57,295 nucleotides of DNA from a virus (Duplodnaviria > Caudoviricetes): positions 1-57,295 of IMG/VR virus record IMGVR_UViG_3300010158_000080. The stretch is one strand, 5' to 3'. Position 1 is the first letter of the stretch, and each line of letters begins with the position of its first letter. The position numbers and the translations under genes are program-made. Below the pieces are notes generated by a model. That model saw nothing but the letters and a program-made list of their open reading frames with translations, was not told where the DNA came from and made no database searches. Below are positions 16,180 to 49,608 of this stretch, piece after piece.

Positions 16180-16345
16180 TTGTGTTGGCAAGGGCAATGA
16201 TGTGGTCAACCAGCAAGCGCATGGCAGCCGCAATCACCGCCCTTTGCGCCCTGTCGCAGTTGTGCGGCGCAATCGCCATGGCGAGGTCGCCAACTGCCCG
16301 CAAAAGGTCGGCAGCGCGGTTTTCTACGTCGGTGCGGTCAACCAT
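16163..16345 (-). CDS. Hypothetical protein
   Basis: GGAG RBS; MVDRTDVENRAADLL...KEPRP. Confidence 0.55.
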   Translation of the reverse strand: MVDRTDVENRAADLLRAVGDLAMAIAPHNCDRAQRAVIAAAMRLLVDHIIALANTKEPRP

Positions 16346-36300: not shown

Positions 36301-39300
36301 ATACAGCACGGCTGGATCAGTAATCCCGCGCCAGATGCCGTTCATCTGGTGCCGGCGCATTTTGATTACGGCGTCAGGAACTTTGCCAAAAAGCTGCAGG
36401 TGTGAACCATCTCTCTGGCGCAGCAATCGGCTGTTGAATTTTTCATTGAATATATTGACCAACCGATCCCGGCGCTCGTCATTGTTGAATGCCCAATCCT
36501 GAAATTCGCTGGCCAGTTCCTCGCCTTTTTGCTCACTCTCGGCGGTGCCAACCTCATCGACATGCGTTTTCTTGTTTTCGTCTTTGAATGTTACCTTCAA
36601 ACCCTTCGAGTTAAGAATTTTGTCAACAATGGCATCAGCATTGTGAGCATTGGCTGACGTTTCCCACTCAGCAGCAGGCTTGCCGTCGGTGTAAACGGTA
36701 AAAGCGTTGGTCAATTCCGAATAGCTGACATGGGCGTTATGGTAGCCAAGGTGTTTTAGAAAATCAGCATAAACGTCTGGCGGAATCCAATTGCTGCCCA
36801 AAATCGGCGTAATTCGATCGGGCGTCAAATCTTCTGGAATAATGCTCTCAAGCGCTTTGGCATTGGCATCGAGGCCGGCGGCGCGGGCCATGTTGAGTTT
36901 GCGCTTGACCAAGCCAGACAGGTAAAGATCACGCGGCTCCCAGCGTTTTGTCTCTGGGTCATAAAATGCCCTCGGCGTCTCACCTTCGGACAAAGCACGC
37001 TCGGCCCCCGGAACATCGGTCCCTAGCAGTTTGGCAATACGCTCAATGTCAATTCGACCAGACTCAGATAAGGCAATTGAAATCGCATCATTGGCATTTT
37101 CAGCATGTTCCGCAAATTTTGGCGGCGTTGTCACGCGCCGGCTCATAATGTCCGACTTGACCCATTTTCCATCAACATATTTTTCAGTTGCCAAAGGCAG
37201 TCCACCATCTGGCATTACATCGGCAAGGTTTGCTATTTTTCGGTCATTAAGCGCGCCATGTTTGGCTACAAAAGCATCATACTTAGCATTGAGCAAATTT
37301 CGACCAGCGGCAATTTGCGCATCAGTAGCACCGGATGATTCCAAAACAATTTGATTTTTGATGGCATCCCGCACCGGCAAAAGGTCACGCACAATCGCTA
37401 CACGGTCTTTGCCCCAGCGATCTTTGGGCGGAATTTCGTTTTCATTTTGGTAAGTGACAAGTTCTTTTTGGTTTCGGTTAGTGACCTTTCCACCTTCCTT
37501 GACCACTTTAAGCGGTTTTCCATCCTCGCCCAAAGTGTTGGTTGCGCGCTGCCACTTGCCATCAATCGTGTAATTATAGTCGGCGGGGAATGGGGTGTTT
37601 TCGGTCAAGGGAATCTCGCGCATAAGCGCTTTGCCCATTTCACCTGCATCAAAATCGACCACCATGTTGAGCTTATTATCAAGGTCGATTGCAATTGCGC
37701 CGGGTTCAGCGCGCATGGCTGAAAGGCGCATAGCGTCAGCCATGACCTGATAATGCCGCAAAGTTTTTTTGGCGATTCCATTAACGGGTGCAATTTCCGG
37801 CAATCTGGAAACCGCTTGGTCGAGCAAGCTTTCAAACTGCGAAGGGTCAGCCAGCGTCACATTCAGATCGGCGCGAGCGTTCATAGTGCCCGTCGCGTTA
37901 ATGTCGCCCACAACCATATAAGGGCGGCTTACAAAAAACGGGTTAGCATTGATTCGCTCACCAGAACCGGCGGGATCGTCAATGGTACTGGAAGGCACCC
38001 ACTCGTTCATAGTTTGCAACGCTCGGTCAATTTCATAGGGCGCAGGCTGTCCATGACCCTTTGGGTATTCGCCGCCCTCCATAACTTTGATCGAAGCATC
38101 GGCTACGGCTTGTTCATCTTCCGTCAGCTTTTTGAAAAATAGCATGTCGGTCACAACGGACGTTCGCGCATTTTCCTTGAATGCGGTGTCAGGCAGACGA
38201 ATGCCACCGATAAATCTACCGCGCCGCGCCATTTCTTTGCGGGCGCTTGGGTCGAGCGCATCCATGAGATTATGGCTTACCACCATTGCCATAGTCCCGC
38301 CCGGTGCCAGCGCATCAAGCGACCCAAGGAAAAACTGATTGTGGATCGACTTGCCATTAAGCGCGCTGTTGTGCGGAAAATAAAGGCTTTCCCGGCCAAA
38401 GGGTGGGTTGCCAATTGCAAGAGCAAATTGATTTTTGGGCAGCGGAAGCTGTTGGAAACCCGAATGAACAACATCGGCATTTGGGTAAAGCTTTTTGGCA
38501 ATGCGGGCGGTCAGGCCATCATACTCGACTCCAAAGGTCCGGCTGCCACCGCGCAAATTTTCAGGCATCAAGCCAAGAAAATTGCCAGTTCCCATAGATG
38601 GCTCAAGGATCGCCCCTTCGCGGAAGCCAAGCTTTTGAGCAGCTTTCCACATGGCATCGACAACGGTTTTGCTGGTATAGTGCGCAGCGGTCGTAGAATT
38701 ACGCGCAGCTTTCAATTCGTCAGGCGTCAACAATTCCTCAATCTCAGAAACGCGCTTCTCCCAGCCTTTGGCAACACCTTCGCCCTCTTTGGCCCCAGCC
38801 ACACGAAAAGCGTTTTTCAAGCCACCCCAGCCGACATAGCGCGCAAGCTGGCGCTGTTCCTCTGGGCTTGCCCGACGGTTTTCGGTTTCCAGCCGCTTGA
38901 GCGTCTTGATCGCGTCGAGATTGTCTTGAAATTTAACACCCTCGGTGCCTTCGCCCAGTTTCACATCATCGCTGATCGTAAAATCCGAAGCGGGCACATT
39001 GATTGGTGTCGAGTTCTCAATCACCTTGTTGGCAGCGATGACTTCTTCGCCGGGAGTTTCCGCGACAGGCTCACCTTTTACTCGCGGTTGATTCTTTCTT
39101 CCACCTCTGGCTCCGGTGGCAGGTTTATCAGTTGCGGAAGAACGAACTCCTCCGCGTCCTCCCTCGACAATCCCTGTCGCATCATTTGCGCTACTTGGTT
39201 CGCTGCTGTCCGGCTGGCCAATTGCGCCTGTCGGTTCAGTTCCCCCGTTTGCTTGAGGCTCTGGTACATTTTCGGACACCATTGTTTCCAATGGTCCAGT

Positions 39301-42300
39301 GCTTGGCGGGTATATTGCATCCCCAGCATTGTCTGTCTCCTTAGGGACATTATGCGCTTGTTCGGCTTCTTGCGCAAAATCTTTTAACGCTGCCGCCATG
39401 ACCTCCGGGCTATCCATGTCGGCGGTTGGCAAACCACGATCAACCAACTCATGCCTTGCACCATCATACCAATGGCGAAGGAAGGGGCGCAGTTTTTCAA
39501 ACGATTCCCCAAGATCGCCAATCATCGCCCGCGCAAAATCTGCAAACTTACGAGCGCCAGCCTCAATATGGAAAGCCGCCAGCTCGGAACCCAGCAACAG
39601 CGTTTCAGGGTCGATCCCCGCGTTAAGACGGTTCATGCGCTCCTTGAGCAACCGGCGCACCTCGGCAGCGCGATCAATGCTCACGCCCTTGTTTTGCGAT
39701 CCCCATGTAGGTTTGCGCGCAGCGGCTTCCTCTGCCGTTAAAAATTGGTCGCTGCGTTTGGAAGTATCTACGCTGGCGACATAGCCTTGATCCCTTGTCG
39801 GGACTAAGCTAACCGTTTCTTCATGGCGAATGCCATTGCGGGAATAAGAGCGAACGCCATTAGCATCTTCAAAAACATCATGGCCCTCTAGGTTTTTGCC
39901 TATGGGTTTTGCTTTTGAGGTGGCCGCTGCTTCGGGTGTAGGTTTGGCGGCATCAGGCAATGGCTTGGCTAAGTTGGCTTGATCCCATCCACGATACCAC
40001 GCCTCCCCAACAGCGGAACCCATATCATGCAAATAGCTGGGCAGCCGGCGTTCTTCACCACGCGCAAAAGCCTCAGCACCATCAGCCTTAGCTCGTTCTG
40101 GTCGATCAGCATTTTTTAAGAAAAGATAATTGCTGGCTCGAACGTCATCGGGAGAAATGCCTTCATGCGCAGCCATCTGTTCATCTGTGGCTTGACGCGG
40201 ATTTATGCCTTCAAGGGCAATCCGGGCATAATCGAGCAATTCTTTTTTGACTGGGAAACCTTGGCCCAGATCATTGGCCAAATTCCATTTTGGCACTGGC
40301 CCCCGGCTGTTGTTCACAAGGCGATCAAAACCATCGTTAATGCGCGCATCAATCCATTCACGTGCGCTCATCTCATTACCAGAACTGTCACGGACTCGCA
40401 TATTTTCAGCAGTCGAAATTGCAAATTTGCGATTGCGTTCAGCAATTCCGCGTTCAATTTCTGCTTCATGGTCAGCCGCAGCTTTGGCCACTTCGTCTTT
40501 AGTAATCCCAGCCCATTCACGCAAAACTTCACGTGTCGTAGCAAGGCCGCTAGGAAGCTTGATGCCAGTTGCCTCGGTAAAAATCAGCCGCGACTTTTTG
40601 TTGTCTGGACGCAGCATATCACGCAGCGCCCAAAAATCTTTATTGCGAATGTAATCCACAAATTTATGATCGGAAGGCAAAACATCCCGGCCAAGCAATT
40701 CGGCGCGGCGGCGCGCAAGTGCATCATAATCAATGGCTGGTTGCGCAGCCTCGGCGGCACCGGCAGCCACAGGCGCAGCTTTTTCTTTTGCTGCCAAGTC
40801 CATCATACGCTCGACATCGGCGTCGTCATGCAACTGGCCGGTGGCGTTTATGTCCTTGAGCGCGGCAAGTTCGGCTTGCTCATGGGGCGCAAGAGCGGGC
40901 TGTTCGGTATGCGCAACAACATCAGCCGCCCCCGCTGGGGGAGGTGTGGCCGGCTTGTTCAGTACATCACGGATTAAATCTTCATGCTTGGCCGAATACA
41001 GAAGCGCGCCGTCTTTGCCCGGTGATACCTTGGCATTGTCAGGTAGCGCGTCCTTGATCGCGGCAATCTGCTCTGGCGTTGCGCCAGTTAGGGTTACGCC
41101 TTTTCCGCTTGCTGTGCGCTCCAGCTTCGCCGCATTCAGTTCAGGTGATGCAGCCGCAGCAGCCTCTCGCGCTCCCGCACCACGACCTTCTGGATTCGCA
41201 ACGCGTTCTCCAGCCGCATCTTGTGCGCCGGATCGAACGTCCCTTTCGTCAGATACCTTTCCAGCGCTGCTACCCTCGCTTTGCTTTCCTCCAGAGAGTA
41301 CCTCAAGGTGGCCATTGAGGGCGACGATGTCGTTGGGGGAGAGGAGTTGTTCAGCTTGGGCCTCATGTTCGTTGGTTGCAGCATGGCTTGGCGCTCCAGT
41401 ATCGGCCTCTTGTTCGATCACATCGGCCAGTAGGGTGTCATGTGGCGCATCTGGGGCATGATCTACCCCAGCCTCCGCAGCGCGCACCTGCAGCGCCTCA
41501 GAGGCCACGGGGCGGTTGTCGTCGCGGTATTTCTCGATTGCATCCGTTGGCGGCATCTCAAACGGGGTTTTGGCCGGCTTACTCGGTTTTTTTGCCTGTT
41601 TCATGTTGGCAAAATCAGGCTCACCGGCATTAGTTTCATTCAATGGATCTGGTTTGGCTGCACGTTTTCTGATTGCATCAGCCGCCATACTTGTAGCTTT
41701 TTTACCAAGGGCAATGCCACCATGCAAAAGTTCGCCGCCGGCAGCCATAATTAGCGCCTGCTTACCAACATCATGAAAAAGTGGTCGATTAGGGTCATAT
41801 TGCTGGGCGACCGCATTATCACCTAAAGTCATAGCGCCACCGATAGCGGCGTTTCCACCTATGCGAGAGGCCGCATTCACGCCAACTCTAGCCAACCCTT
41901 TTTCAGCAATTTGCATACCAGCCTTGCCAAGGCTTTTACCAATGATCCCGCCAACAATCTTTTCGCCCGGAATCAACATAGCCGCGCCGGAAACAACCGC
42001 ACCTTCCGACGCTATAATTTGAGCTTTTTCTATTTCTTTGGCACTTGGTTGCCTTTTGGGTGCTGCTTCTGCCACTTTGGTTGCGAATGCTAGAGCCGCC
42101 TCATCTGACATGCCTTGGTTTTTACCTTTGTGAAAAGTATCCCAATATGCCTGTTCGTTGGGGGCTTGCATTTGCGCCTGAATGGCAGCTTCATAATGAG
42201 CATCATAGCTATCACCCGCTGCGACTTTTGCACCTATTATTGGATTTATGAGCAAAGGCACGGAGCCAATTGCGCCGTGCATAATTTCTTGCCCAAGGGT

Positions 42301-43248
42301 AGGGTTTTTTAATGCCGTCTCTTTTGCTTTGTTTTTCAAATTCTCCGCAAGAAGGGTGTAGCCTTCTGATAGGGCTGGTGTACCAGTTAGCGAATCTATA
42401 ACCGTACCGACAACTTGAGACGCACCAGCGCCAGCTTGGTAAAGGGCCGACCCCAATTCAGTCCCATAATCGCCCAAAGTTCCCCACCAGCCCTTTGGCT
42501 TGGCCGGAGCGGCAGCGGCGGGCGCGAATTGCGCCCAAGGATCAGATGATGATTTGGGGGCATCTTTGGCGGGCGCGAATTGCGACCAGTCATCATCGAC
42601 TTTCCCACCATGCGCAGCAGCCCAAGCATTTGCGGCTGCCATGCGCTTGCCTCGGGCTAGACCTTTCGAGCGCTCAAAATGCTGGTCAATTGCGACGGCA
42701 GCGGCGGCAGGTGTTGGCGCGTTCAAAATTGCAGCGCGTTTTGCCGCCGGCAAACGGTCGATCTCATATTTTGTAAACAACGCGACCTGCATCGGTGTGG
42801 CTTGCGACACATCAATACCCATCATTTTTTGAAATTCAGCGGCGCGATCTGGGTGCCACTGGAACACACCACGCGCAGCACCGCCATCGCCTTTTGCATG
42901 TGGATCAAAACCGCTTTCCGCAAAGCCGTTACCCATCAGGCCAGCAATGACGTTACCCGAAAACCCGACATCCTGAAAAGCATTGGCATATTTGGGCGCA
43001 GCGGCGCTGTAGTCTATCTTGCCTGCAAACGACGGGGCAAAGCCTTGTGCGCCACCCGAAGGCTGTTCTCCACGCCCCCAATCGCCTGTCGCGGCTTGGT
43101 AAAACGGGTTGTCTTTAGGATCGCCTTGCCCTTTGAGCGGGGTTCCAGTGCCAACGCCAGTCGGGATCGGCGGCGGGGTCCATTCCGTTGCGTCATCAAT
43201 AGGAATATCCCCGCTATCAGCGGATACGAATTGATCCCAATCGCTCAT
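30325..43248 (-). CDS. Giant 4307-aa polyvalent ejection protein: lysozyme-like + DarB-like N6-MTase + SNF2 helicase + HExxH
   Basis: GLMGNGFAESG...GVFQW (~42.6-43.0 kb); LEPSMGTG (~38.6 kb) and GNPPF (~38.4 kb); HVVGAGKT, DEAH, TGTPISN, QREGRIVRQGN; HEVVH (~33.23 kb); occupies the P22 gp16 position. Confidence 0.88.
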   Translation of the reverse strand: MSDWDQFVSADSGDIPIDDATEWTPPPIPTGVGTGTPLKGQGDPKDNPFYQAATGDWGRGEQPSGGAQGFAPSFAGKIDYSAAAPKYANAFQDVGFSGNVIAGLMGNGFAESGFDPHAKGDGGAARGVFQWHPDRAAEFQKMMGIDVSQATPMQVALFTKYEIDRLPAAKRAAILNAPTPAAAAVAIDQHFERSKGLARGKRMAAANAWAAAHGGKVDDDWSQFAPAKDAPKSSSDPWAQFAPAAAAPAKPKGWWGTLGDYGTELGSALYQAGAGASQVVGTVIDSLTGTPALSEGYTLLAENLKNKAKETALKNPTLGQEIMHGAIGSVPLLINPIIGAKVAAGDSYDAHYEAAIQAQMQAPNEQAYWDTFHKGKNQGMSDEAALAFATKVAEAAPKRQPSAKEIEKAQIIASEGAVVSGAAMLIPGEKIVGGIIGKSLGKAGMQIAEKGLARVGVNAASRIGGNAAIGGAMTLGDNAVAQQYDPNRPLFHDVGKQALIMAAGGELLHGGIALGKKATSMAADAIRKRAAKPDPLNETNAGEPDFANMKQAKKPSKPAKTPFEMPPTDAIEKYRDDNRPVASEALQVRAAEAGVDHAPDAPHDTLLADVIEQEADTGAPSHAATNEHEAQAEQLLSPNDIVALNGHLEVLSGGKQSEGSSAGKVSDERDVRSGAQDAAGERVANPEGRGAGAREAAAAASPELNAAKLERTASGKGVTLTGATPEQIAAIKDALPDNAKVSPGKDGALLYSAKHEDLIRDVLNKPATPPPAGAADVVAHTEQPALAPHEQAELAALKDINATGQLHDDADVERMMDLAAKEKAAPVAAGAAEAAQPAIDYDALARRRAELLGRDVLPSDHKFVDYIRNKDFWALRDMLRPDNKKSRLIFTEATGIKLPSGLATTREVLREWAGITKDEVAKAAADHEAEIERGIAERNRKFAISTAENMRVRDSSGNEMSAREWIDARINDGFDRLVNNSRGPVPKWNLANDLGQGFPVKKELLDYARIALEGINPRQATDEQMAAHEGISPDDVRASNYLFLKNADRPERAKADGAEAFARGEERRLPSYLHDMGSAVGEAWYRGWDQANLAKPLPDAAKPTPEAAATSKAKPIGKNLEGHDVFEDANGVRSYSRNGIRHEETVSLVPTRDQGYVASVDTSKRSDQFLTAEEAAARKPTWGSQNKGVSIDRAAEVRRLLKERMNRLNAGIDPETLLLGSELAAFHIEAGARKFADFARAMIGDLGESFEKLRPFLRHWYDGARHELVDRGLPTADMDSPEVMAAALKDFAQEAEQAHNVPKETDNAGDAIYPPSTGPLETMVSENVPEPQANGGTEPTGAIGQPDSSEPSSANDATGIVEGGRGGVRSSATDKPATGARGGRKNQPRVKGEPVAETPGEEVIAANKVIENSTPINVPASDFTISDDVKLGEGTEGVKFQDNLDAIKTLKRLETENRRASPEEQRQLARYVGWGGLKNAFRVAGAKEGEGVAKGWEKRVSEIEELLTPDELKAARNSTTAAHYTSKTVVDAMWKAAQKLGFREGAILEPSMGTGNFLGLMPENLRGGSRTFGVEYDGLTARIAKKLYPNADVVHSGFQQLPLPKNQFALAIGNPPFGRESLYFPHNSALNGKSIHNQFFLGSLDALAPGGTMAMVVSHNLMDALDPSARKEMARRGRFIGGIRLPDTAFKENARTSVVTDMLFFKKLTEDEQAVADASIKVMEGGEYPKGHGQPAPYEIDRALQTMNEWVPSSTIDDPAGSGERINANPFFVSRPYMVVGDINATGTMNARADLNVTLADPSQFESLLDQAVSRLPEIAPVNGIAKKTLRHYQVMADAMRLSAMRAEPGAIAIDLDNKLNMVVDFDAGEMGKALMREIPLTENTPFPADYNYTIDGKWQRATNTLGEDGKPLKVVKEGGKVTNRNQKELVTYQNENEIPPKDRWGKDRVAIVRDLLPVRDAIKNQIVLESSGATDAQIAAGRNLLNAKYDAFVAKHGALNDRKIANLADVMPDGGLPLATEKYVDGKWVKSDIMSRRVTTPPKFAEHAENANDAISIALSESGRIDIERIAKLLGTDVPGAERALSEGETPRAFYDPETKRWEPRDLYLSGLVKRKLNMARAAGLDANAKALESIIPEDLTPDRITPILGSNWIPPDVYADFLKHLGYHNAHVSYSELTNAFTVYTDGKPAAEWETSANAHNADAIVDKILNSKGLKVTFKDENKKTHVDEVGTAESEQKGEELASEFQDWAFNNDERRDRLVNIFNEKFNSRLLRQRDGSHLQLFGKVPDAVIKMRRHQMNGIWRGITDPAVLYDHVVGAGKTFTAIARIMERRRMGMSNKPLVVVPNHLVEQWAKDAIKLYPGAKIMAAGKADFERANRRRLFARIAASDFDMAIIGHSSFNFIDLDRATEERYIQDELQSAHAAVIEAEKAAAEAGQSGFRKPFGVAEAERLVKKLEERLARLRGGNRDRLLSFEQMGIDDLTIDEAHEFKNLAYSSRLQDIRGMGNKTGSQKAMDLHLKMRAIRERHNTSIAFLTGTPISNSVSEMYLLMRNLVPQELKEMGLENFDAWRSMFVSAGTEWEPTEAGGVKEVNRLGRNWANMRPLMDLWYSVADAVTNDDIKAAYAEDNPGKKYPLPDTNSQRANGRDREVAVVPPSPTTQRILEEVVRGFEELPFEKDPKARNIARLKLMDRARKVSLDPRAVDPTIDVGDERSKLATIADRVAATYKKWNSDKGTQIIFLDRSVPKSKGDDKIIAAYDAAYGKLMDAVSKGDEDAKAKALDGLEKFNPNEIEAMRVAQAGGWNAYDELKKLLKAQGIPESEVAYVQEANTDKQKSDLFGKVNRGEVRVLIGSTQRMGAGTNVQERLVALHHGDTTWKPSDIEQREGRIVRQGNSLLAKYGDDKFAVDVIAYVTERSIDAKMWDLNAKKLKAINGIRKYDGADTMEFDDAESVGMAEMAALATGNPLMIQRVELDGDIKKMQLQQRSYNNRINALRSKIASNVRQMANGPQRADMYAQFADVLEAQKARVQANSTQRMAMVDGKPYNDVRAATDAAQAIIAKFRANDPKARFSIDIDGEKITSVDGVDNAIRNKLGTPDFEGSLGDQQFIDTNDLAKAIGAKAVESKGKKEFTISGVSIDGMPAEIDVGESFGKVSASISVLDAQGREVAQYNTLTDAFTPSTARALINKIREQMDPIRFRSAAAYEQRKVEAAAQEQEGLQAEVAKPWPKTDELAAKREQLQQVITELSGEKRSDETQAEGDAKQSIAEPGSEQLSASHADMLDRLREVGLEGKVALKIVKSLGGPAGEFHRNVITIAMDGPSAMHALNHEVVHAMRGAFTDAEWRALSRVATGDARLMASIKKRYFELSGEDQVEEAVSDLFARFATGERQPAGLLLKAWERIKAIFEAIGNALRGNGFRTAKDVMRAMSSGEIASRMNDMTEAGALDASFARQSRVERDDKEAPRTGPGGIITNILGRGVDNVGHKLAEAARKALPDPVQTALHEVRMGLDPIAEGSDRAQGVAKDFANAKRLAAYQWGKLDEWLVKNFDAESRRRMWEAADEQGVILRRGDQPGPNEGLNRLTDKERDTVLELQRRADASFKAAQDLGMVTGEGLESYVPRMIIEMTASGPKVISKTTSKQERRGGKISTTTGQLRQRKYETVEETEAAARAAFGNGVEVVRDIRTLGVATQRLDQAIAGRTLVENIKTMSKDTGDVLVEEGSTSNPQSFFTMPDEPALQTWGVKFVEDAETGKVVPALDQNGDMMPLWISKEFEGPLKAVLTGPSSGIVRAIMDIKAKQMSIIMYNPVMHNAVIWGKAIPADPLGVLLLYRYFAGNKVRNDPAQMSQAIKDGMDPIGGRYFNQDIAGIASAEGQGIKAGQSWTSQILGKGVDLFSPTAGEATRRAIDKFGDVWHNTLLWDRIADLQAGLYAHLREKGIKAGLDPVTAGREAAHFANRYAGALPMEAMSQMARTTANLLLFSRSFTLGNMAAAKDVIGGLPSDVKAQILRDAGPLMLDKAQGRTRLKAASMLLIESAFSTVSLVLAAHLAAWLAGQIYQAPSDNEKGKEGRFLIRYDENGTAIYGRLPTGKVNEDQIGWVTQPRDIMLRKLSFLGKLMYEVAANDRGFGHKIIGPDDKGIYGYGAVIGRLGYDVIIGTLPMSQYDAVNDYFHGTGDKKSAALAAMLPLAGITISPGAPGGPGMADIYNAKESQRFRFDEAKAEIGKMIKRGDVAGARQKMNELKVAPSLQSYIIRTTLNPSFRMNGKQVRDFMRIATPEQVEKFRADQAAMAKRKAQQ
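39078..39329 (-). CDS. Overprinted (+1 frame) TnpV-like small protein nested in the giant gene
   Basis: TAAGGAG 7 nt before ATG; MLGMQYTRQALDHWKQWCPKMYQSLKQTGEL...EDAEEFVLPQLINLPPE. The host frame is a low-complexity linker here. Confidence 0.65.
   Translation of the reverse strand: MLGMQYTRQALDHWKQWCPKMYQSLKQTGELNRQAQLASRTAANQVAQMMRQGLSREDAEEFVLPQLINLPPEPEVEERINRE
41136..41384 (-). CDS. Possible second overprinted (+1 frame) helical protein nested in the giant gene
   Basis: GGAG 9 nt before ATG 41384 (alternative ATG 41315); amphipathic LEESKARVAALERYL...RLENALRIQKVVVRERERLL over a disordered host linker. Confidence 0.35.
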   Translation of the reverse strand: MLQPTNMRPKLNNSSPPTTSSPSMATLRYSLEESKARVAALERYLTKGTFDPAHKMRLENALRIQKVVVRERERLLRLHHLN

Positions 43249-44912
43249 TAGTGACGAGCCTTGTTTTGCAGCTTCCTGCCATCAGGCGCAATAAACCATG
43301 AACCTTGAGGGAGGGAAAGTGCTTGCTGCACTGTGCTAACAATATAAGGTTTATCGGCAGACCCGAAAGGTGATTTTGATGCGGCATATTGAGCATAAGC
43401 TTGACGTTGTGCTTGAGTGTGGTTTCCGCCTTTATTAGATGGTGAACCGCCTTGATCTGGAGCGCCCGCATTTTGAATTGTGGCCAAGTTGCTCCGATAC
43501 GCAGCCTCAATATCAAACGGCTGGCCGGGATTGTTTATGCTGGCGAGGTCTTGTTGATGGATAGCCATCCCCCGCGCCGCCACAACCTGCCGGTCAGGAG
43601 CCATTGGCTTGATGCCGACGGCAATATCATAGGCTTCCTTATCGTTGTAGCCGGCGGCTTTTGCGCCAGCTATTTTGGTTTCAAGCGTTATCGCGCCGGC
43701 ACTTTGCTTACTAACGGCTACACCGCTATCGGCGACCTCCCCAGTTTGACTATTAAGAAGGCCAAGATTTCCACTTGGGAGGTTACCAACTGGCGAATAT
43801 GAATGCGTATACGGAGCGCGAGCTTTGGCCTCGTTTGCCGCTTTTTGGCCGCTATTATCCATATATTGCGAGACGGTTTGGGCTTGTACAGTCCATCCAA
43901 TGATCTTCGACATAGTCATCTGGTCGATTGGTCGAGACAGTAAATCTTGGGCGACAAGCGGTGCCATCCACTTATGGTTGACGACGATGGCCAAAGATTC
44001 GCGCAAAGCTGCAACAGCTTCTGGGGAATTAGCGCCATACTGCGCGATCTGCGTCAGGACGTTTTGCCCAAGCGATCCCATAGTGCTTTGCTGGGTCACA
44101 AGAGCGGTTTTTTGAGCATCACTAAGCGTGTTTTCTGCGGTTGCCAGTTTTTCATAAATGGTTGGCGCATAGCGCTTAAGGTAAACGGGATTGCCCGTTT
44201 TGTTATAAGCCATCATCCCATCATTTGCGATAGCCTCAGCGGCTTCCTTGGGATAGCGAATGGCAAATTCGGTCATGGCAGGAATTGGCTTGCCGGTAAC
44301 CGGCGACACATAAACTTCCCGATCAGGGCTTGTCGTTTGGCCAAGCGCGGCAAGCGGCGAAACGGCAGCTGGGGCTTGCGCCAAGGGGCTGGGATTGTTT
44401 ACAATCGACTGAACACCATGCGATGCAGCGGCCTCGCGGTATTCCTTGGCCTTGTCGCCATGCCCAATAAACTGCGCTGCTTGCGGAACCTCTTTGGAAA
44501 GTTCCAGCATTTTCGCATCCCATACAGCCGCTTGCGCCGGGTCGCTGGGATCAACGGATCTCATTACCTCCTCGACGCGTGGATCAAGAAGCGTATTTTG
44601 ACTGGTGGCCGGAGCAGTTGGTTGGTACGCAGATTCCGCAGCGGCCAATGGCGACGATTGCCCAGTTCGCTGCGCGACAATCTTATCCATCAGCGTATTG
44701 TGCATCAGCTTTTCAGTCAATGTCATCGCATTGTCTTGGTTGGTTTGCTGCGCGCCGATGGTCCGCTGCTTGCTATACTCAACATCAAACGGCGCAGTCG
44801 CCCGCGCCACCTGCGACTGCGTTTGGGCAGTCGAGGCTTGCGCCGCCGCAAGTTGGCTCTCGGACGGCGTATTCACGTTCAAAGCCACGAACTGTCCGCC
44901 ATAACCAGCCAT
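43248..44912 (-). CDS. Ejection/DNA-transfer protein (gp20 position)
   Basis: A/Q-rich, between the gp7-like gene and the giant gene; C-terminal LPQGSWFIAPDGR. Confidence 0.65.
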   Translation of the reverse strand: MAGYGGQFVALNVNTPSESQLAAAQASTAQTQSQVARATAPFDVEYSKQRTIGAQQTNQDNAMTLTEKLMHNTLMDKIVAQRTGQSSPLAAAESAYQPTAPATSQNTLLDPRVEEVMRSVDPSDPAQAAVWDAKMLELSKEVPQAAQFIGHGDKAKEYREAAASHGVQSIVNNPSPLAQAPAAVSPLAALGQTTSPDREVYVSPVTGKPIPAMTEFAIRYPKEAAEAIANDGMMAYNKTGNPVYLKRYAPTIYEKLATAENTLSDAQKTALVTQQSTMGSLGQNVLTQIAQYGANSPEAVAALRESLAIVVNHKWMAPLVAQDLLSRPIDQMTMSKIIGWTVQAQTVSQYMDNSGQKAANEAKARAPYTHSYSPVGNLPSGNLGLLNSQTGEVADSGVAVSKQSAGAITLETKIAGAKAAGYNDKEAYDIAVGIKPMAPDRQVVAARGMAIHQQDLASINNPGQPFDIEAAYRSNLATIQNAGAPDQGGSPSNKGGNHTQAQRQAYAQYAASKSPFGSADKPYIVSTVQQALSLPQGSWFIAPDGRKLQNKARH

Positions 44913-44916
44913 TGAC

Positions 44917-45150
44917 TTAGCCTCCCATCATGCCGCCGGGAGAAGGCATTCCGCCCGGTGCCGATGGCATACCCTGATCTGGAGCCGCAGGTTTAGTGCT
45001 ACCCATGCTTGGATCACTTGGCATCCCCATCGGCGGGAACGCCATTGGAGATTGTGGAAAAGCCGTTGCAGCCGCAGTCGAGCGTTTGAGCGATTTGATA
45101 TGCCCGCCACCGCGCTTACCGCCAGATTTCATGCTTTTAATTTTTTTCAT
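44917..45150 (-). CDS. Small basic, M/P/G-rich protein
   Basis: AGGGA RBS before ATG 45150; MKKIKSMKSGGKRGGG...GMPSPGGMMGG. Confidence 0.55.
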   Translation of the reverse strand: MKKIKSMKSGGKRGGGHIKSLKRSTAAATAFPQSPMAFPPMGMPSDPSMGSTKPAAPDQGMPSAPGGMPSPGGMMGG

Positions 45151-45169
45151 GTTAAATTCCCTATAATCA

Positions 45170-46096
45170 TCAGAAAATAGATGGATTTGCCGCAATCGTT
45201 GAACCTGCACTGTTATATAAACCATTAGTAGGCGTAACAATTCCACCGGAACCATAAAGCGGCGTTCCATAGCTGCTAAATTTATTGCTGAGTTGGCTCA
45301 ATCCGCTGGTCAAAGCATTTGTTGAACCCACAATGCCCGCCGCTTGCGATTGGCCGGCTTGCAATTGAGATTGCGCCGCGTTCGCCGCCGCCGTCGCTCC
45401 CGCATTGCCCACGCCCGCCGCAGCGTTTTCGCCAAGCGAGGCTGCGGATTGAAGTGCTGACACATAGGGCTGCCAGCCCTGTTGCTGGGCATAACCTTGG
45501 CCGTAGGCTTGGGCATCTTTAAGCTGCGCGCCGGACAGCGTGAGGCCACGCGATGCCGCGCTTCGGTCGAGAGCTTGAATGCCTTGGCCAAGCCCGAACT
45601 GATAACCCGGCATTTGAGTAAGCAGTTGGGTTGCCAATTGCGGGTTGGGCTGCCCGGTATTGTTGGCGTTTACCGTCGTCCCTTGCTGGGGTTGCGTACC
45701 ACCAAGCGCAGAAACTGGGACTTGGATTTGCCCAATGCCGGGAATGTCGATTGTCGTCATGGCATTGGGGTTCGATCCCGCCGCGCCAAGCTGGCTGGTC
45801 ATGCCTGTTTGCTGGCCGCCACCGCCAAAGCCAAAAATGTTGGCGAGTTGCGAAAACGCATTATTGCCACCCGTCATAAACGGCGACAAATCATTGCGCG
45901 TTCGGTCATACATTTGCAGTTGCGTTTGCGTGGCATTGTTTGCTGCCTGCGTTTGCGCTGCCGCCGCATCGCCTGCCGCGTTACTACCTATAACTGAATT
46001 GGCAATTGTAGATCCAATTCCGACAACAGCCGCTGTAGTGCCAATTGCCGCTGCGCTGCCAAGCGCCCCAATGCCGATTGCCGCACCGATACCCAT
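45170..46096 (-). CDS. Ejection/DNA-transfer (pilot) protein, gp7-like
   Basis: Hydrophobic G/A N-terminus, AA.AQ..AA..A...Q..MY..TR.DL.PF, PGYQF...QG.QALDRSAA.RG..LSG. Confidence 0.8.
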   Translation of the reverse strand: MGIGAAIGIGALGSAAAIGTTAAVVGIGSTIANSVIGSNAAGDAAAAQTQAANNATQTQLQMYDRTRNDLSPFMTGGNNAFSQLANIFGFGGGGQQTGMTSQLGAAGSNPNAMTTIDIPGIGQIQVPVSALGGTQPQQGTTVNANNTGQPNPQLATQLLTQMPGYQFGLGQGIQALDRSAASRGLTLSGAQLKDAQAYGQGYAQQQGWQPYVSALQSAASLGENAAAGVGNAGATAAANAAQSQLQAGQSQAAGIVGSTNALTSGLSQLSNKFSSYGTPLYGSGGIVTPTNGLYNSAGSTIAANPSIF

Positions 46097-47166
46097 TACT
46101 GGACCCCCGCCAAATCAAGTCGGTAAAGATGCCCAAAATCTTGCGCGCCCATGCGGCGGTAAATGGCATTTATCCTACCACCATTTCCGCGCAATCCATC
46201 ACGCATTTGGATTTCACTGACACCACGCTCTTTGAGAACCCGCGCAGCTTGCCTTTGCAATTTCAAACCAAGGCCCGGAAAAAGAGGCGAAGCATAAAAT
46301 GTGGTATGCTCGGACGATACAATCCCAATTGCATCAAACTTTTCGCCAATAACCGTCATCAGATACCCAAACATTCGGCCATTGCACCGGGCGGTCGTGA
46401 TCTGCATCGCGCCATGCTCGTAAAGCCGGCGCATGTAGGGGATGTTGGTTTTTTCCCATTGGGCCGGGTTTTCACCAATCATCGCCATGTGGTCGCGGAA
46501 CAAATGTTCGGCTCCCGCCACCCAATCGTCGAAGCTTTCGGTCTGGAGCGTCAAGCCTTCTGGGGCAACAGGTTCCCGCATAGCCATAGCCGCAAGTGTG
46601 TGATGCTTGGCAATTGCCGCCAAACGCTCCAGCGCGGGGGCGTAGGCAGCGGCATAGCGCATCATGGCCTTCATATTGCATTGCACATTCACCGCCGCCC
46701 AGCGCGCCCAGTGCAGGCGATCATGGGAATAAGGCAGGCAATGCTCAAAAACCGCCTTGCAAGTCGCCTCATCGATCAAATCAGCATAGCGTACTGATAG
46801 CACCCCCGGCACCCTTGCCTTGATCTGGTCAAGCTTGCGGTCAAGATATTGCATCCGGCTTGTGAGCATGGCACGGTCAAACGCCACACCGGGCAGCCGC
46901 ATGAGGCTTTCCACCACTTCCTCAACTGGCCGGCGCACAACTAGCACCTTGGCGTTCGGCGCAAACTGGTCGAGCAGCCGCCACCACGGCGCTGCGGATG
47001 TTTCTGCCGTTCCAATATCCGGCTGCGCGAACCAAGCCTTAATATCGTCAACGCTACGCATGTGGCGCAATTGCTCATGGCCGCAAATCGCATCCCCATA
47101 AGTGAGGAATTGCGATAGCCATGCGGTGCGCGACCGAGGCAAAGCAAAGATCACAAACGGCGGCAT
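46096..47166 (-). CDS. Sulfotransferase-like (P-loop) plus GNAT acyltransferase fusion
   Basis: Start ATG 47166 overlaps the upstream TGA. FVIFALPRSRTAWL (5'-PSB-like), HE, KVLVVRRPVEEVVES (3'-PB-like); C-terminal TARCNGRMFGY...FYASPLFPGLGLKL...LKERGV...IYRRMGA. Confidence 0.7.
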   Translation of the reverse strand: MPPFVIFALPRSRTAWLSQFLTYGDAICGHEQLRHMRSVDDIKAWFAQPDIGTAETSAAPWWRLLDQFAPNAKVLVVRRPVEEVVESLMRLPGVAFDRAMLTSRMQYLDRKLDQIKARVPGVLSVRYADLIDEATCKAVFEHCLPYSHDRLHWARWAAVNVQCNMKAMMRYAAAYAPALERLAAIAKHHTLAAMAMREPVAPEGLTLQTESFDDWVAGAEHLFRDHMAMIGENPAQWEKTNIPYMRRLYEHGAMQITTARCNGRMFGYLMTVIGEKFDAIGIVSSEHTTFYASPLFPGLGLKLQRQAARVLKERGVSEIQMRDGLRGNGGRINAIYRRMGAQDFGHLYRLDLAGVQ

Positions 47167-47498
47167 CAGCTCGTGACTGTGCCAGAGGCAAAAAGGTTGA
47201 CCAAACCACCTGTAGCACCCTTGGCATAAATCTTGTCGCCGGGAGCAAGCGTCTGGCCGATCAGCGCAAAGATGTTGTACGGCACACCAGCCAAACAATT
47301 CTGTTCGACAATGATGCTGGCTGCGCCCGTACCACCGCCAGACGGCACCCATTCAATCGTAACCAATTCCGCCGCATTTCCGCGTGGATTATAGAGCGTC
47401 ATCGCATCGACGCGAGTATAGCCCGCCGCCGTAAAATAAGCGGTGAACGCATTGGCGATCTGTTGCGACTGGATAAGGGGTTGGATCGTGACAGACAT
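47166..47498 (-). CDS. Small beta-rich virion protein
   Basis: LIGQTLAPGDKIYA...VNLFASG; located in the tail module. Confidence 0.65.
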   Translation of the reverse strand: MSVTIQPLIQSQQIANAFTAYFTAAGYTRVDAMTLYNPRGNAAELVTIEWVPSGGGTGAASIIVEQNCLAGVPYNIFALIGQTLAPGDKIYAKGATGGLVNLFASGTVTS

Positions 47499-47587: not shown

Positions 47588-48199
47588 CTAACCAATTCGC
47601 CACTGGCTTCCGCCCGATTCCCAATAAACAGGGACATGATTCGCACCGCCGCCCGCTGCAACCGTTCCAAAGTTTCCGGCGGCAACAACGGACCCATCGG
47701 TAATAAAGGCGCGCTGCCCATCATAGGCAGGAGGGGGCAAGTCTGCAAAAATCACCGCATAGCTAGGCTGGGGGGCACTTGCAGGTGTTCTGGCCAGCAT
47801 TGCAACGGCCTCGATCTCGCTGCGCGACATTTGGCCTGATATGGGCGCACTGGTTGGGGCAGAAGCCAAAATAGGTAACGATGGCAGCGAGGTCAAAGCA
47901 GGCGCAGCAGGCGCAGCAGGCGGCGCTACCGCAGGCGGGGTAAGCAAAGCAAGCGCTGCGGCCACATCGTTAATCAGCGCCAGTGCAATAGCTTGAATGC
48001 CGCCGGGGCTGGGGGAATTGGCTTCTGTCACATCGACTATGCCGCCAGTGCCATGAATTGAAGCCCATAGCTCTTGCAAAAATTGAATAGCCGGCGGGGT
48101 TAACGTCGTTGTGCCATCTTGGTTTAGCGTAGCCCAAGGAAGCCCAAATACCGGGGGCGGTGAATTACCCGCAGATTGCGGAAACGAGGGATTGCTCAT
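47588..48199 (-). CDS. Putative tail needle/accessory protein
   Basis: Follows the gp10-like gene; C-terminal FADLP....GQRAFITD...GGGANHVPVY...WRIG. Confidence 0.6.
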   Translation of the reverse strand: MSNPSFPQSAGNSPPPVFGLPWATLNQDGTTTLTPPAIQFLQELWASIHGTGGIVDVTEANSPSPGGIQAIALALINDVAAALALLTPPAVAPPAAPAAPALTSLPSLPILASAPTSAPISGQMSRSEIEAVAMLARTPASAPQPSYAVIFADLPPPAYDGQRAFITDGSVVAAGNFGTVAAGGGANHVPVYWESGGSQWRIG

Positions 48200-49608
48200 C
48201 CCATGCCCGCCTTTATATCGGCGTAGGCCGCAATGATAGTACGTCGCACTGGGTCAGTAACGACAAATTCCCACATCATTTGTCGCCCTTGGCCCTGCGC
48301 CATCCATCGCAAGCGCTTGAGATATTCACCCTCCATGCCCATAGATCGCCACAATTGCGTTTTTGACCATGTCATCCCGCCATCAATCGATCGACGCATC
48401 ATAATTTGCGGGTCAGAGCCTTGCCCGGTTGTGAGGCCAACACCAGCCTGCACTTGCAATTCGAGGCGCGAGCAAAAAATGCGCCGCCGGTCAGCATGTT
48501 GGTTCATCGACCAAATCAAGCCGATCATGGGATTGCCGATTTCGGTAAAAATATCCGAATCAACGATACCCATTTCACCGCTTAAACTGTCGCCTAAATA
48601 TACCCCATCATAAGCAGCAACCGCTGTCGAAAAGCGCCACGCACCAAGGTCGATATAATCAGCATCGACCGAATTTCGCTCATGCCATTTGCCTGTTGAT
48701 ATATCGTAGCACAGAGTTTTGTTCAGGCTGGGGACGGTCATAAATACAAGCTTGTGACCTTCCCATGTGAACGTCATACAAAAAACATTGGTAATGTTGT
48801 CAGCTTTCGCCAACAAAGTTTCGATAGGGTGCGTCGAAACCCGAAGCGCGGCATTGGCCTGCAATCGGTAAAACACATGGTCAGCACCCAAAAAGAAAAT
48901 TGCGCCATCTTGTTTGATGATTGAATAAGGTGAGATACACCCATAATTGATGATACCACCCGAATACCGCTGAAAAGGAAAATTTGCGGTGCCGGCGTCA
49001 TACCAAATCTCAATGTGCGAGCTGCAAAAAATAAATTCCAATTGCAGATTTTGAACAGTCGCGGTGACAAATCCCGGCTGCCCTTCGGCAGAGGCAAAGT
49101 CCAAGCCGTTATAGGTCAGGCCATCATAAAGGTCTGATAGGAACCACTGGTTTGTTCCGACGCGGTCAAAAATGAAATAGCCGTCCGTGAATGAAACCGT
49201 GTTCGCTGGGTAAAATGCCGCCGATGTGATCGACACCAGCCCCCCGGCCACGGTATAAATCCAGCCAGCCACACCGTTAACGATGCACAATTGTACGCCA
49301 TTATCGCTCATCGAAACGCGATTGGTGCCGCTGATCCCAATACCAACAAGGGTTCCCGCACCGTTCTTAGCTACGGACCACAACTCGCTGCCGGAAACGG
49401 TATAGATCACGCCATTGAAATTCCAACTTCCCCGGTGCGGCCCAAGCCCGACACTTTTCAAAGACAATGTGCCAGGGCAACCAATCAGCGGCATTTTGCC
49501 CTCTGCTTCTTCCGGCTGCCGCTCGGTCATAAAATTGAGCAGCCGCGTGTTCACCAATTGCGGTGTGCGGCTGACTGCAAATTCAGAAGCGAGGACAATT
49601 TCAGGCAT
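48196..49608 (-). CDS. P22 gp10-like tail hub (packaged DNA stabilization) protein
   Basis: VYTVSG..L, MSDNG.QL, DGYFIF, FASAE..P, YDISTGKWHER, S.DGG.TWS, GEY.KR.RW...G. Confidence 0.85.
   Translation of the reverse strand: MPEIVLASEFAVSRTPQLVNTRLLNFMTERQPEEAEGKMPLIGCPGTLSLKSVGLGPHRGSWNFNGVIYTVSGSELWSVAKNGAGTLVGIGISGTNRVSMSDNGVQLCIVNGVAGWIYTVAGGLVSITSAAFYPANTVSFTDGYFIFDRVGTNQWFLSDLYDGLTYNGLDFASAEGQPGFVTATVQNLQLEFIFCSSHIEIWYDAGTANFPFQRYSGGIINYGCISPYSIIKQDGAIFFLGADHVFYRLQANAALRVSTHPIETLLAKADNITNVFCMTFTWEGHKLVFMTVPSLNKTLCYDISTGKWHERNSVDADYIDLGAWRFSTAVAAYDGVYLGDSLSGEMGIVDSDIFTEIGNPMIGLIWSMNQHADRRRIFCSRLELQVQAGVGLTTGQGSDPQIMMRRSIDGGMTWSKTQLWRSMGMEGEYLKRLRWMAQGQGRQMMWEFVVTDPVRRTIIAAYADIKAGMG

Follow-up and report, generated by a model that had tools for sequence, protein, structure and literature searches.

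The closest described counterparts of the gene studied here are, by position, the lone acetyltransferase genes of the phages Bcep22 (gp69) and JC1 (gp63). Both follow head-closure/tail genes, immediately precede the gene of a virion protein and have a giant DarB-like protein encoded further downstream (for JC1, accessible text of PMC9144972). In the same text, JC1 gp63 is not one of the proteins that mass spectrometry detected in the virion. By fold, the closest counterparts are tyrosylprotein sulfotransferases (TPSTs). Sulfotransferases carry two PAPS-binding motifs, and a basic residue belongs to the 5'-phosphosulfate-binding one (motif definitions as in the accessible parts of PMC5562738 and PMC6637879); in the latter source, the base, a His or Glu, sits between the two motifs. 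Our literature search found nothing relevant on a phage sulfotransferase or on acylated ejection proteins. In N-myristoylation of animal-virus entry proteins and in HlyC-type toxin acylation, a GNAT or GNAT-like acyltransferase acts on a membrane-inserting target, and N-myristoylation requires a Met-Gly start. To our knowledge, it is an open problem how podovirus ejection proteins exit the head, refold, and become inserted in the envelope of the host. The words 'acetyltransferase' and 'post-translational' do not occur in the accessible part of a 2022 review of these proteins (PMC8954989).

We analyzed a viral sequence of 57,295 nucleotides (IMG/VR record IMGVR_UViG_3300010158_000080, referred to as the window), in which one gene encodes a protein, P0001, with a sulfotransferase-fold (ST) domain and a GNAT-fold domain. 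What is new in this analysis is an association between this fusion and a Met-Gly start of the next gene's product.

Position of the fusion gene in the ejection operon

The gene lies on the minus strand (46096..47166, stop codon included) and encodes 356 amino acids. Homologues are about 355 aa long and span 92-100% of this form. We rejected a longer, 418-aa reading from 47352 because it overlaps the upstream gene and homologues do not use it. The start ATG (47166-47164) has one base in common with the TGA of an upstream 110-aa ORF (47166..47498, minus strand), which belongs to no Pfam or PHROG family and has relatives at the equivalent place in L074, L079, and L083. The stop TAA (46098-46096) has one base in common with the ATG of a downstream 308-aa gene (45170..46096, minus strand). 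The product of that gene starts MGIGAAIGIG, matches the 'DNA ejection' family PHROG 598 (E 8.6e-27) and is our proposed acceptor.

A 470-aa tail hub/head-closure protein (48196..49608, minus strand; PHROG 578 'head closure Hc3', E 3.8e-96) is encoded upstream and marks a P22-like module. The rest of the ejection operon (30325..44912, minus strand) encodes two proteins, one of 554 aa (43248-44912) and a giant one of 4307 aa (30325-43248), the latter with Phage_lysozyme2, SNF2, and helicase domains. This layout matches that of the DarB-like proteins of Bcep22 and JC1 (for JC1, accessible text of PMC9144972). In 77 of 80 related loci, the tail hub is upstream of the enzyme. An ejection-protein relative is downstream in 57 of the 80, and many of these loci end early. 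In P22-like and T7-like phages alike, the enzyme immediately precedes the ejection/internal-virion genes, and T7-like loci have it between gp13-like and gp14-like genes.

The preliminary description of this DNA, made from the sequence alone, had claimed translational coupling to the pilot protein gene, and the one-base stop/start overlap agrees with this. It had also compared the position with that of the lone GNAT-like genes before podovirus ejection genes and with that of T7 gp13. Both comparisons hold: a lone GNAT homologous to the C-domain of P0001 directly precedes the ejection gene in 13 of 80 control loci, Bcep22 gp69 and JC1 gp63 hold such a place (for JC1, accessible text of PMC9144972), and the enzyme adjoins or is fused to a gp13-family protein in T7-like relatives. 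The gene-neighborhood survey that it proposed returned a constant place before ejection genes, fusions and splits of the domains, and the Met-Gly rule.

Promoter-like sites for the P0001 gene were at chance level (6 observed, 6.2 expected), as were terminator-like sites (6 observed, 9.2 expected), and the GC content and composition of the gene equal those of its flanking genes. On these grounds, we rejected its reading as a lysogenic-conversion 'moron'. A link to a PAPS-reductase-like gene (16338-17120) was also dropped, since that gene is far from the enzyme and its likeness to Bcep22 gp73 is faint (E 0.004 over 52 residues).

Folds and conserved residues of the two halves

The AlphaFold2 model of full-length P0001 had a mean pLDDT of 94.4 and a pTM of 0.84, with a long helix (residues 176-195) joining the two halves. 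On this model, the two-domain nature of the protein is real. Because fold searches with the whole model returned the GNAT half only, the N-domain (residues 1-197; 46576..47166, minus strand; model pLDDT 95.8) was folded separately. The first ten Foldseek rows were then all TPSTs (E from 8.3e-6). VIA placed sulfotransferases at ranks 1-10 (Z 12.7-10.8) and kinases after them (Z 10.7 or less). The best VIA matches were 4gox and 5wri (both Z 12.7), and human TPST1/2 and tick TPST matched at Z 12.4-12.7 over about 162 residues. Viral clusters of 188-203 aa that share this fold are present in the Atlas.

Pfam PF13469 (Sulfotransfer_3) scored 24.6 bits on P0001, under its cut-off of 27, and PF17784 scored 16 bits, under its cut-off of 22.8. 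Homologue P0197 passes the Sulfotransfer_3 cut-off (29.2 bits), and the precomputed Sulfotransfer_3 family is present on 15 of 120 homologues among those listed. In homologues, the Sulfotransfer_3 HMM aligns to the regions of the two motifs (profile positions 1-32 and 116-210). The sub-cut-off score weakens the formal Pfam call for P0001, not the model-based assignment at the level of fold. P0001 had no match in NCBIfam, and neither its sequence nor the N-domain profile found anything meaningful among PDB sequences. The nearest phage family in PHROGs, phrog_10855, is labeled merely 'hydrolase'.

The ORF, its length and the motifs quoted in the preliminary description are all present in the sequence: FALPRSRTAWL (residues 7-17), H30-E31, and KVLVVRRPVEEVVES (residues 73-87). 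The 5'-phosphosulfate-binding-type loop LPRSRTAWL (residues 9-17; 47116..47142, minus strand) lies between strand 4-8 and helix 14-20. Its R11 is kept in 250 of 250 homologues and S12 in 244. At position 13, where sulfotransferases usually have G, 240 of the 250 carry R and 7 carry G; the replacement of the canonical G had been pointed out for this protein. The 3'-phosphate-binding-type motif RRPVEEVVES (residues 78-87; 46906..46935, minus strand) occupies a strand end and helix start; R79 (250/250) is near the end of strand 73-78 and S87 (238/250) is in helix 81-89. The eight-residue spacing of R79 and S87 equals that of SULT1E1 and TPST2. Between the two motifs is a candidate catalytic base region, C28-G-H30-E31 (47074..47085, minus strand), in which 247 of 250 homologues have H30 and 247 have an E or D next to it at position 31. 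Also conserved are E55 (240/250, the remainder Asp but for one) and T56 (245/250). R11, R79, H30, and S87 are conserved across every architecture of the family. These include, as R11, H30, and S87, all three residue types that the accessible text of PMC6637879 names as essential in sulfotransferases.

In the 5wri alignment, model residues 1-165 correspond to chain residues 69-288. R11 coincides with the catalytic R79 of TPST1 (accessible part of PMC5562738) if the first residues align gap-free. For the TPST catalytic set R78/E99/K158/S285 (TPST2 numbering), the alignment ranges give putative matches of the Arg and of a His/Glu near the Glu position only. As far as the sources accessible to us describe these enzymes, the Arg of the 5' motif is shared with TPST (R78/R79) and RaxST (R11), and the Ser of the 3' motif and an acidic or His residue between the motifs are common to the N-domain and the TPST/RaxST group. 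Unlike TPSTs, P0001 is cytoplasmic, viral, and fused to a GNAT. Its N-domain is shorter (about 197 versus about 280 residues), has RSRT in place of RSGT, and has no detectable sequence similarity to solved sulfotransferases.

Taken together, the models and motifs support the assignment of the N-domain to the sulfotransferase fold, with both PAPS-binding motifs in what are predicted to be the right secondary-structure elements. The preliminary description had read the N-half in this way and proposed a structural comparison, which returned a sulfotransferase fold with VIA Z up to 12.7. Its kinase-like alternative fared poorly. The N-domain is without a Walker A motif (GK[ST]), and every one of its ten top structural matches is a sulfotransferase.

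The same residues can be read in another way. CoA includes a 3'-phospho-ADP moiety, and inhibition of sulfotransferases by CoA compounds has been reported. The N-domain may be a non-working sulfotransferase that binds the 3'-phosphoadenosine moiety of CoA or acyl-CoA, or PAP, and serves the GNAT as a cofactor-binding, regulatory or scaffold module. The best conserved residues (R11, R79, S87) are nucleotide-binding ones, position 13 is R in most homologues, S87 is Ala in 8 of 18 gp13-ST fusions, and the domain has a CoA-using GNAT as its most frequent fusion partner, in an arrangement that the full-length pTM suggests to be fixed. However, H30, E55, and T56 lie outside the nucleotide motifs and are nevertheless near-invariant, which fits catalysis, and the ST domain also occurs alone, in 8 unique loci without a detected GNAT. 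We consider a non-working N-domain rather improbable and continue with a PAPS-type sulfotransferase.

The C-half (residues 200-356; 46099..46569, minus strand) has the GNAT acyltransferase fold, as had been noted from its sequence. Its best VIA match was 3fix (Z 16.3, 144 aligned residues, rmsd 2.6), and all 50 VIA rows listed were GNATs, spanning residues 198-356. Foldseek also matched GNATs (E 6.5e-7), and the family profile matched NAA30 (7l1k, E 1.6e-5) and other GNATs. Pfam GNAT families had no match on P0001 even at E<=10; the Acetyltransf_1 cut-off (20.7 bits) is passed by P0143 (23.1), P0191 (20.9), and the split gene in L101 (31). G298-L-G300 (46267..46275, minus strand) is a candidate for the GNAT pyrophosphate-binding loop (Q/R-x-x-G-x-G/A). 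At least 90% of 54 aligned homologues keep G298 and G300, but a non-basic residue occupies the Q/R position. The last helix has a conserved Tyr. The domain resembles RimI (5isv, Z 15.1) and NAA30 (Z 14.1), from which P0001 differs by its sulfotransferase fusion. N-myristoyltransferase and HlyC-type acyltransferases were absent among the 50 VIA matches listed. TmcA (2zpa), a Foldseek match that has a P-loop domain and a GNAT, was discarded (rmsd 16 A over 426 columns).

Fold neighbors of both halves include enzymes that act on other than proteins. NDST is likewise bifunctional, combining acetyl-group chemistry with sulfotransfer, and its ST domain matches the N-domain (Z 11.0-11.2); it differs in being joined to a deacetylase instead of a GNAT and in acting on a glycan of the animal Golgi. 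The acceptor of P0001 may be a sugar or a precursor of the envelope (intermediates of LPS, capsule or peptidoglycan), or else a small molecule, for instance an antibiotic of the aminoglycoside type, with receptor change late in infection or protection of replication as the outcome. The glycan and natural-product sulfotransferases NDST1 (Z 11.2), Stf0 (10.6), StaL (10.8), and Cpz8 (11.6) are neighbors of the N-domain, the C-domain has aminoglycoside, polyamine, and sugar N-acetyltransferases at Z 14-15, and the proteobacterial hosts have the capacity to make PAPS. At these Z values, however, fold neighbors do not separate substrates. For the gene itself, promoter and terminator signals do not rise above chance. 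It also has the composition of its neighbors and is coupled to late structural genes, unlike known conversion genes. Fusions to gp13-like morphogenetic proteins and the Met-Gly rule would be unexplained. We give a non-protein acceptor little credence and prefer an acceptor within the ejection machinery.

Family and domain architectures

We found 1,314 homologues at E<=1e-3 in one library and 1,395 cluster representatives in another, which is far more than chance would give. The family is nearly all viral, without any named or cultured-phage member. In cultured phages, whole P0001 had no tblastn match at E<=1e-5. The N-domain and a T7-like relative reached 'NTP hydrolase' genes of Pseudomonas siphophages at E 0.009-1, which we dismissed as too weak. 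Hosts are Proteobacteria. An APS kinase domain is present in 5 of 5 host genomes with such prophages and also in 11 of 14 control genomes; because it is common in the controls, its presence is a weak test of PAPS supply.

Most proteins in a set of 272 had the ST-GNAT architecture (210), followed by ST alone (29), gp13-ST (14), and gp13-ST-GNAT (12). The ST, GNAT, and T7 gp13-like domains occur fused, split, and reordered. For example, locus L100 has a gp13-like gene, an ST gene, and a GNAT gene adjacent to one another, and in L101 ST and GNAT are two genes. Counting well-supported branches of a quick tree only, architecture changed at least 4 times. These fusions and splits support the view that the three modules may be functionally linked.

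In T7-like relatives, the ST gene follows or is fused to a gene of the T7 gp13 family (PF11090, PHROG 308). Between the gp13-like part and the GNAT domain there is a weak alignment (hhalign probability 66%, E 5.6e-5), and we know of no enzymatic activity of T7 gp13. The gp13-like profile had no match among the ORFs of the window, and the gp13 domain was seen in relatives only. Bcep22 gp69 matched none of the ST, GNAT, and gp13-like domain profiles and had no BLAST similarity to a gp13-like protein.

In 26 of the 272 proteins, the enzyme is fused to a domain of the gp13 family, which is called 'internal virion protein' in PHROGs and 'probable scaffold protein' in Pfam. The enzyme itself may be an internal virion protein that is ejected with the pilot proteins and modifies host proteins, the envelope or signaling molecules at the start of infection. 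Other ejected phage enzymes offer an analogy, the gene is inside the ejection/internal-virion operon in two podovirus lineages, and the same operon of the window encodes a giant multi-enzyme protein (lysozyme, SNF2 helicase). However, a folded 40-kDa two-domain enzyme would need to pass through the portal channel, and the lone GNAT of JC1, a homologue by position, went undetected in virions according to the accessible text of PMC9144972. Ejection of the enzyme would also leave the Met-Gly rule of the next gene unexplained, and we hold it to be quite unlikely. The failure to detect JC1 gp63 in the virion fits an enzyme that acts at assembly, by analogy, and it points to no substrate.

The Met-Gly start of the downstream protein

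In a second pass, all 93 of 93 fusion loci had a next gene whose product started with Met-Gly and continued with a hydrophobic stretch rich in Gly and Ala. In the first pass, this was the case in 92 of 93 unique fusion loci, and the remaining locus had no callable ORF. The background rate is 249 in 2,481 ORFs, and same-family ejection proteins from control loci without an ST or GNAT match start with Met-Gly in 10 of 62 cases. When the first 25 residues were removed, the downstream proteins fell into 11 BLAST-unrelated groups, all 11 of which start with Met-Gly. The rule also applies in a T7-like prophage of Azospirillum rugosum (L082) and beside a portal gene (L078). It could in part reflect a recombination module made of the enzyme gene and the 5' end of the next gene, and the loci are from related phages.

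We interpret P0001 as a late-expressed enzyme that modifies the N-terminal part of the adjacent ejection protein, a reading to which we give somewhat less than an even chance. A soluble two-domain enzyme would be produced late, together with the tail and ejection proteins. Its N-domain would be a PAPS-type sulfotransferase with a fold nearest to TPSTs, and its C-domain an acyl-CoA-dependent GNAT N-acyltransferase. The target would be a segment at the N-terminus of the first ejection (pilot) protein. After the host strips the Met, the GNAT may acylate the exposed glycine amine, and the sulfotransferase may add sulfate to that substrate or to the newly attached group. Modification before or during packaging into the head might then tune membrane insertion or ejection.

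Sulfation is the harder part of this proposal. The segment after Met-Gly (GLAAAA...) is without a hydroxyl and therefore offers no obvious sulfate acceptor, and one amine cannot carry both a sulfate and an acyl group. The tyrosine of a PGYQF motif was considered and rejected as acceptor, since loci without the enzyme have the motif equally and the downstream protein of L082 lacks it. A predicted complex of the enzyme with residues 1-110 of the downstream protein scored 0.00 against a mark of 0.32, with the partner's own fold uncertain, and we gave it no weight in either direction. The earlier reading, dual sulfation and acylation of virion proteins or glycans, is partly supported.

A broader version, that short-tailed phages modify the N-terminal glycine of the pilot protein with an enzyme of their own, by an acylation that is possibly lipid and is coupled to sulfation, seems unlikely to us. 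The comparison with N-myristoylation and HlyC is an analogy only, and no lipid donor is indicated for P0001. If true, this would be a bacterial-virus counterpart of N-myristoylated animal-virus entry proteins and the first case of phage protein sulfation. Our results suggest that P0001 is an enzyme of known kinds in a new combination, and that it points to an undescribed modification of the injection machinery. Confirmation that the enzyme modifies the neighboring ejection protein would bring protein sulfation and N-terminal acylation into phage virion biology. More than a thousand viral protein clusters now called 'hypothetical' would then have a function, as would the lone acetyltransferase genes that have long been described as 'morons' of Bcep22-like phages.

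Loci with other enzyme types have other downstream N-termini. The lone GNATs of Bcep22-like and other podoviruses, which are without a sulfotransferase domain, precede proteins that do not start with Met-Gly but mostly with MVA.. or MAI... Because lone GNATs pair with non-Gly N-termini, Gly is not required by the GNAT as such. In 18 loci in which ST is not fused to GNAT, the starts were MP (7), MA (5), MG (2), MS (2), MV (1), and MN (1). Two ST-only loci also had Met-Gly downstream. In these loci, the N-terminus of the next protein changes with the type of enzyme. The MP starts in the non-fused ST loci often read MPSxSxP.

Gene and fold of the two-domain protein

The window, a 57,295-base virus record from IMG/VR with an estimated completeness of 88%, has the genes expected of a temperate phage with a short tail, among them those for terminase, portal and capsid, Erf-type recombination genes and a P22 gp10-like hub (PHROG 578; 48196..49608, - strand). 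The ORF for the 356-aa protein (47166..46096, - strand) is tightly packed. The start codon (ATG) overlaps the stop codon of a 110-aa ORF upstream by one base, and the stop codon (TAA) likewise overlaps by one base the ATG of the 308-aa gene (45170..46096, - strand), whose product matches PHROG 598 'DNA ejection'. The gene and the motifs quoted in the preliminary description were confirmed, the latter at residues 7-17, 30-31 and 73-87. GC content equals that of the flanks, and promoter- and terminator-like sites showed no excess over chance level.

AlphaFold2 with 54 homologues gave a whole-protein model (mean pLDDT 94.4, pTM 0.84) in which residues ~200-354 are assigned a GNAT fold by predicted structure and structure search. 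GNATs made up 50/50 of the VIA matches listed for the whole model; 3fix aligned with the GNAT half over 144 residues (Z 16.3, rmsd 2.6). The family profile matches NAA30 (E 1.6e-5) and other GNATs. Because whole-model fold searches returned the GNAT half only, residues 1-200 were folded alone (pLDDT 95.8). The best ten Foldseek matches listed were all tyrosylprotein sulfotransferases (E from 8.3e-6), and the best ten in VIA were all sulfotransferases: the olefin synthase sulfotransferase (ST) domain (4gox) and TPST1 (5wri), both with Z 12.7, tick TPST (12.5), TPST2 (12.4), Cpz8, 3rnl, NDST1, NST (1nst), Stf9 and StaL. P-loop kinases ranked after these in VIA, with Z 10.7 or less. The earlier reading of the protein as ST and GNAT halves, for which modeling of the N-terminal half had been proposed as a check, was right at the level of fold. 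Sequence comparisons point only weakly to the ST half: the protein scores 24.6 bits against Pfam Sulfotransfer_3 (cut-off 27), with no NCBIfam match and nothing among PDB sequences. One homologue (P0197) passes Sulfotransfer_3 at 29.2 bits, and 15 of the 120 homologues listed carry this family as a precomputed assignment.

According to PMC5562738, the 5'-PSB motif belongs to a strand-loop-helix element, and the 3'-PB motif is found where a strand passes into a helix. In the N-domain model, LPRSRTAWL falls between strand 4-8 and helix 14-20, and RRPVEEVVES runs from the end of strand 73-78 into helix 81-89. PMC6637879 names three residues as essential: one that is basic in the first motif, a Ser in the second and, between the two motifs, a base that is His or Glu. 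Among 250 family members, which cover all four architectures, R11 and R79 are conserved in 250/250, H30 in 247 and S87 in 238 (Ala in 8/18 gp13-ST fusions), while E55, T56 and E/D31 are nearly invariant. The arginine suspected of replacing the canonical glycine of the first motif is a family trait, as position 13 is Arg in 240/250 and Gly in 7/250. The TPST1 alignment sets model residue 1 onto chain residue 69; if there are no early gaps, R11 would align with the catalytic R79 of TPST1. An APS kinase domain is encoded in 5/5 bacterial genomes with such prophages, so the donor PAPS can be made, although APS kinase is a common gene. That the N-terminal half is a sulfotransferase-like module that only binds a 3'-phosphoadenosine nucleotide such as CoA seems unlikely to us.

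Family, architectures and genomic position

A search of one library gave 1,314 homologues at E<=1e-3; the top 120 are all 329-395 aa long and 56-64% identical to the window protein; another held 1,395 cluster representatives. Atlas clusters of the family are 94-100% viral, and the sole name on any member is 'hypothetical protein'. No orthologue was found in the cultured phages searched. Prophage copies occur in an isolate, Azospirillum rugosum, and in MAGs of Sphingomonas, Acidocella, Acetobacteraceae, Beijerinckiaceae, Rhodopila, Nevskia and Steroidobacteraceae. Nearest to the window phage is the Sphingomonas locus (capsid 82% identical).

Among 272 family proteins, 210 are ST-GNAT and 29 are ST alone, part of which may be truncated metagenomic ORFs. 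An extra N-terminal domain precedes ST in 14 and ST plus GNAT in 12. This domain belongs to the T7 gp13 family (PHROG 308; Pfam PF11090, 27 bits, cut-off 25) and aligns weakly with the GNAT half (hhalign probability 66%). The parts also occur as separate genes, three adjacent ones for gp13-like, ST and GNAT in locus L100 and two for ST and GNAT in locus L101. On a quick, weakly supported tree, well-supported branches alone imply at least four architecture changes. In the T7-like locus L101 the gene before ST (6603-7010, + strand) is not gp13-like; its 136-aa product matches PHROG 10255 'kinase' (E 3e-26) and a cytidylyltransferase-like Pfam family (22.7 bits, cut-off 21), and a nucleotidyltransferase beside a PAPS-type enzyme is a possible point of interest.

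A neighborhood survey of the fusion, suggested with the first description, covered 80 related IMG/VR loci. The hub gene was upstream of the enzyme in 77 of them, and a homologue of the 308-aa ejection protein was downstream in 57, many loci ending early. Across this distant set the enzyme is ~60% identical versus ~30-35% for the hub; L083, the closest relative, shows the opposite, with 53% for the enzyme and 66% for the hub. T7-like loci read tubular proteins A and B, gp13-like, ST (and GNAT), gp14-like, gp15-like and gp16-like, and in a third context (L078, L098, L111) the enzyme is flanked by terminase and portal genes. One T7-like module belongs to the A. rugosum prophage (467001-484050 of its contig), with the order tubular protein B, ST-GNAT, a 280-aa Met-Gly protein and a transglycosylase protein; as the prophage of a cultured isolate, it could offer an experimental system.

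Lone GNATs homologous to the C-domain directly precede the ejection gene in 13/80 control loci. Bcep22 and JC1 have an acetyltransferase in the same operon position as ST-GNAT (PMC9144972 for JC1), and the JC1 acetyltransferase was not among the virion proteins detected. We regard as improbable that the enzyme is packaged and ejected to act on the host. Bcep22 and JC1 also have a PAPS-reductase gene within the ejection module, two genes after the acetyltransferase. The window encodes a 260-aa protein at 16338-17120 (- strand) that matches PHROG 424 'phosphoadenosine phosphosulfate reductase' (E 2e-28) and no Pfam family at E<=0.001; it is barely similar to the Bcep22 reductase (E 0.004).

The N-terminus of the next protein and a proposed function

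The ORF after the fusion starts with Met-Gly in 92/93 unique loci, the remaining one having no callable ORF; a second pass gave 93/93. Usually L, I or V follows, then a Gly/Ala-rich hydrophobic stretch. When the downstream proteins were clustered by BLASTP without their first 25 residues, they fell into 11 unrelated groups (sizes 78, 3, 3, 2 and seven singletons), and all 11 keep the Met-Gly start. The rule holds in the T7-like prophage of A. rugosum (MGLGAVSAG) and beside a portal gene (MGLLGAAVG). Control ejection proteins, which share the motif family but come from loci without an ST or GNAT match, start with Met-Gly in 10/62, Ser, Thr, Pro and Ala being common at position 2; Gly occupies this position in 249/2,481 of all ORFs >=150 aa in the loci.

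Proteins downstream of lone GNATs mostly start MVA.. or MAI... After ST unfused to GNAT (18 unique loci), starts are MP 7, MA 5, MG 2, MS 2, MV 1 and MN 1, the MP starts often being MPSxSxP in P22-like and T7-like loci alike; MPS-x-S/T-x-P starts were seen in L093, L096, L099, L102, L104-L107 and L110. The N-terminus of the next protein thus varies with the type of enzyme, the pattern that would be expected if the N-terminal segment is the substrate. By the usual rule, all the second residues named here permit removal of the initiator Met. Shared ancestry of related phages, or a recombination unit across the gene junction, could lie behind part of the Met-Gly pattern.

The function we infer, tentatively and at slightly under an even chance, is that of a late, assembly-time enzyme whose target is the N-terminal region of the neighboring ejection protein. 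The GNAT would modify the exposed amine of the N-terminus, and the sulfotransferase would use either the same substrate or the newly added group. The proposal is weakest in its chemistry, since GLAAAA... has no hydroxyl for sulfate. A glycan or small molecule as acceptor is given the same low probability as the packaged enzyme and the nucleotide-binding module. Both kinds of enzyme are already known. Searches of the literature turned up neither a phage sulfotransferase belonging to a virion module nor an acylated ejection protein, and a term search of the ejection protein review PMC8954989 gave no occurrence of 'acetyltransferase' or 'post-translational'. The ST-GNAT fusion appears to be undescribed, as do its constant position ahead of the ejection genes in two podovirus lineages and the Met-Gly link.

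Other features of the ejection and terminase regions

The 308-aa ejection protein (45170-46096, - strand) has a low-complexity insertion of ~60 residues (residues ~100-160) before the conserved PGYQF motif; most relatives do not have this insertion. Between the first and second ejection genes lies a small ORF (44917-45270, - strand) with no family match; its likely product, starting at an internal MKKIK, has a basic part followed by a Pro/Gly/Met-rich one. The position of the last ejection protein is occupied by a 4,307-aa ORF (30325-43248, - strand) with an N-terminal phage tail lysozyme domain and SNF2 and helicase domains, resembling the DarB-like giant virion proteins of Bcep22-like phages. 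In the terminase region, the large and small subunit genes are several kb apart, with an HNH endonuclease gene (7932-8288, - strand) between them; similarly wide spacing in Bcep22-like phages is described in the JC1 paper (PMC9144972).
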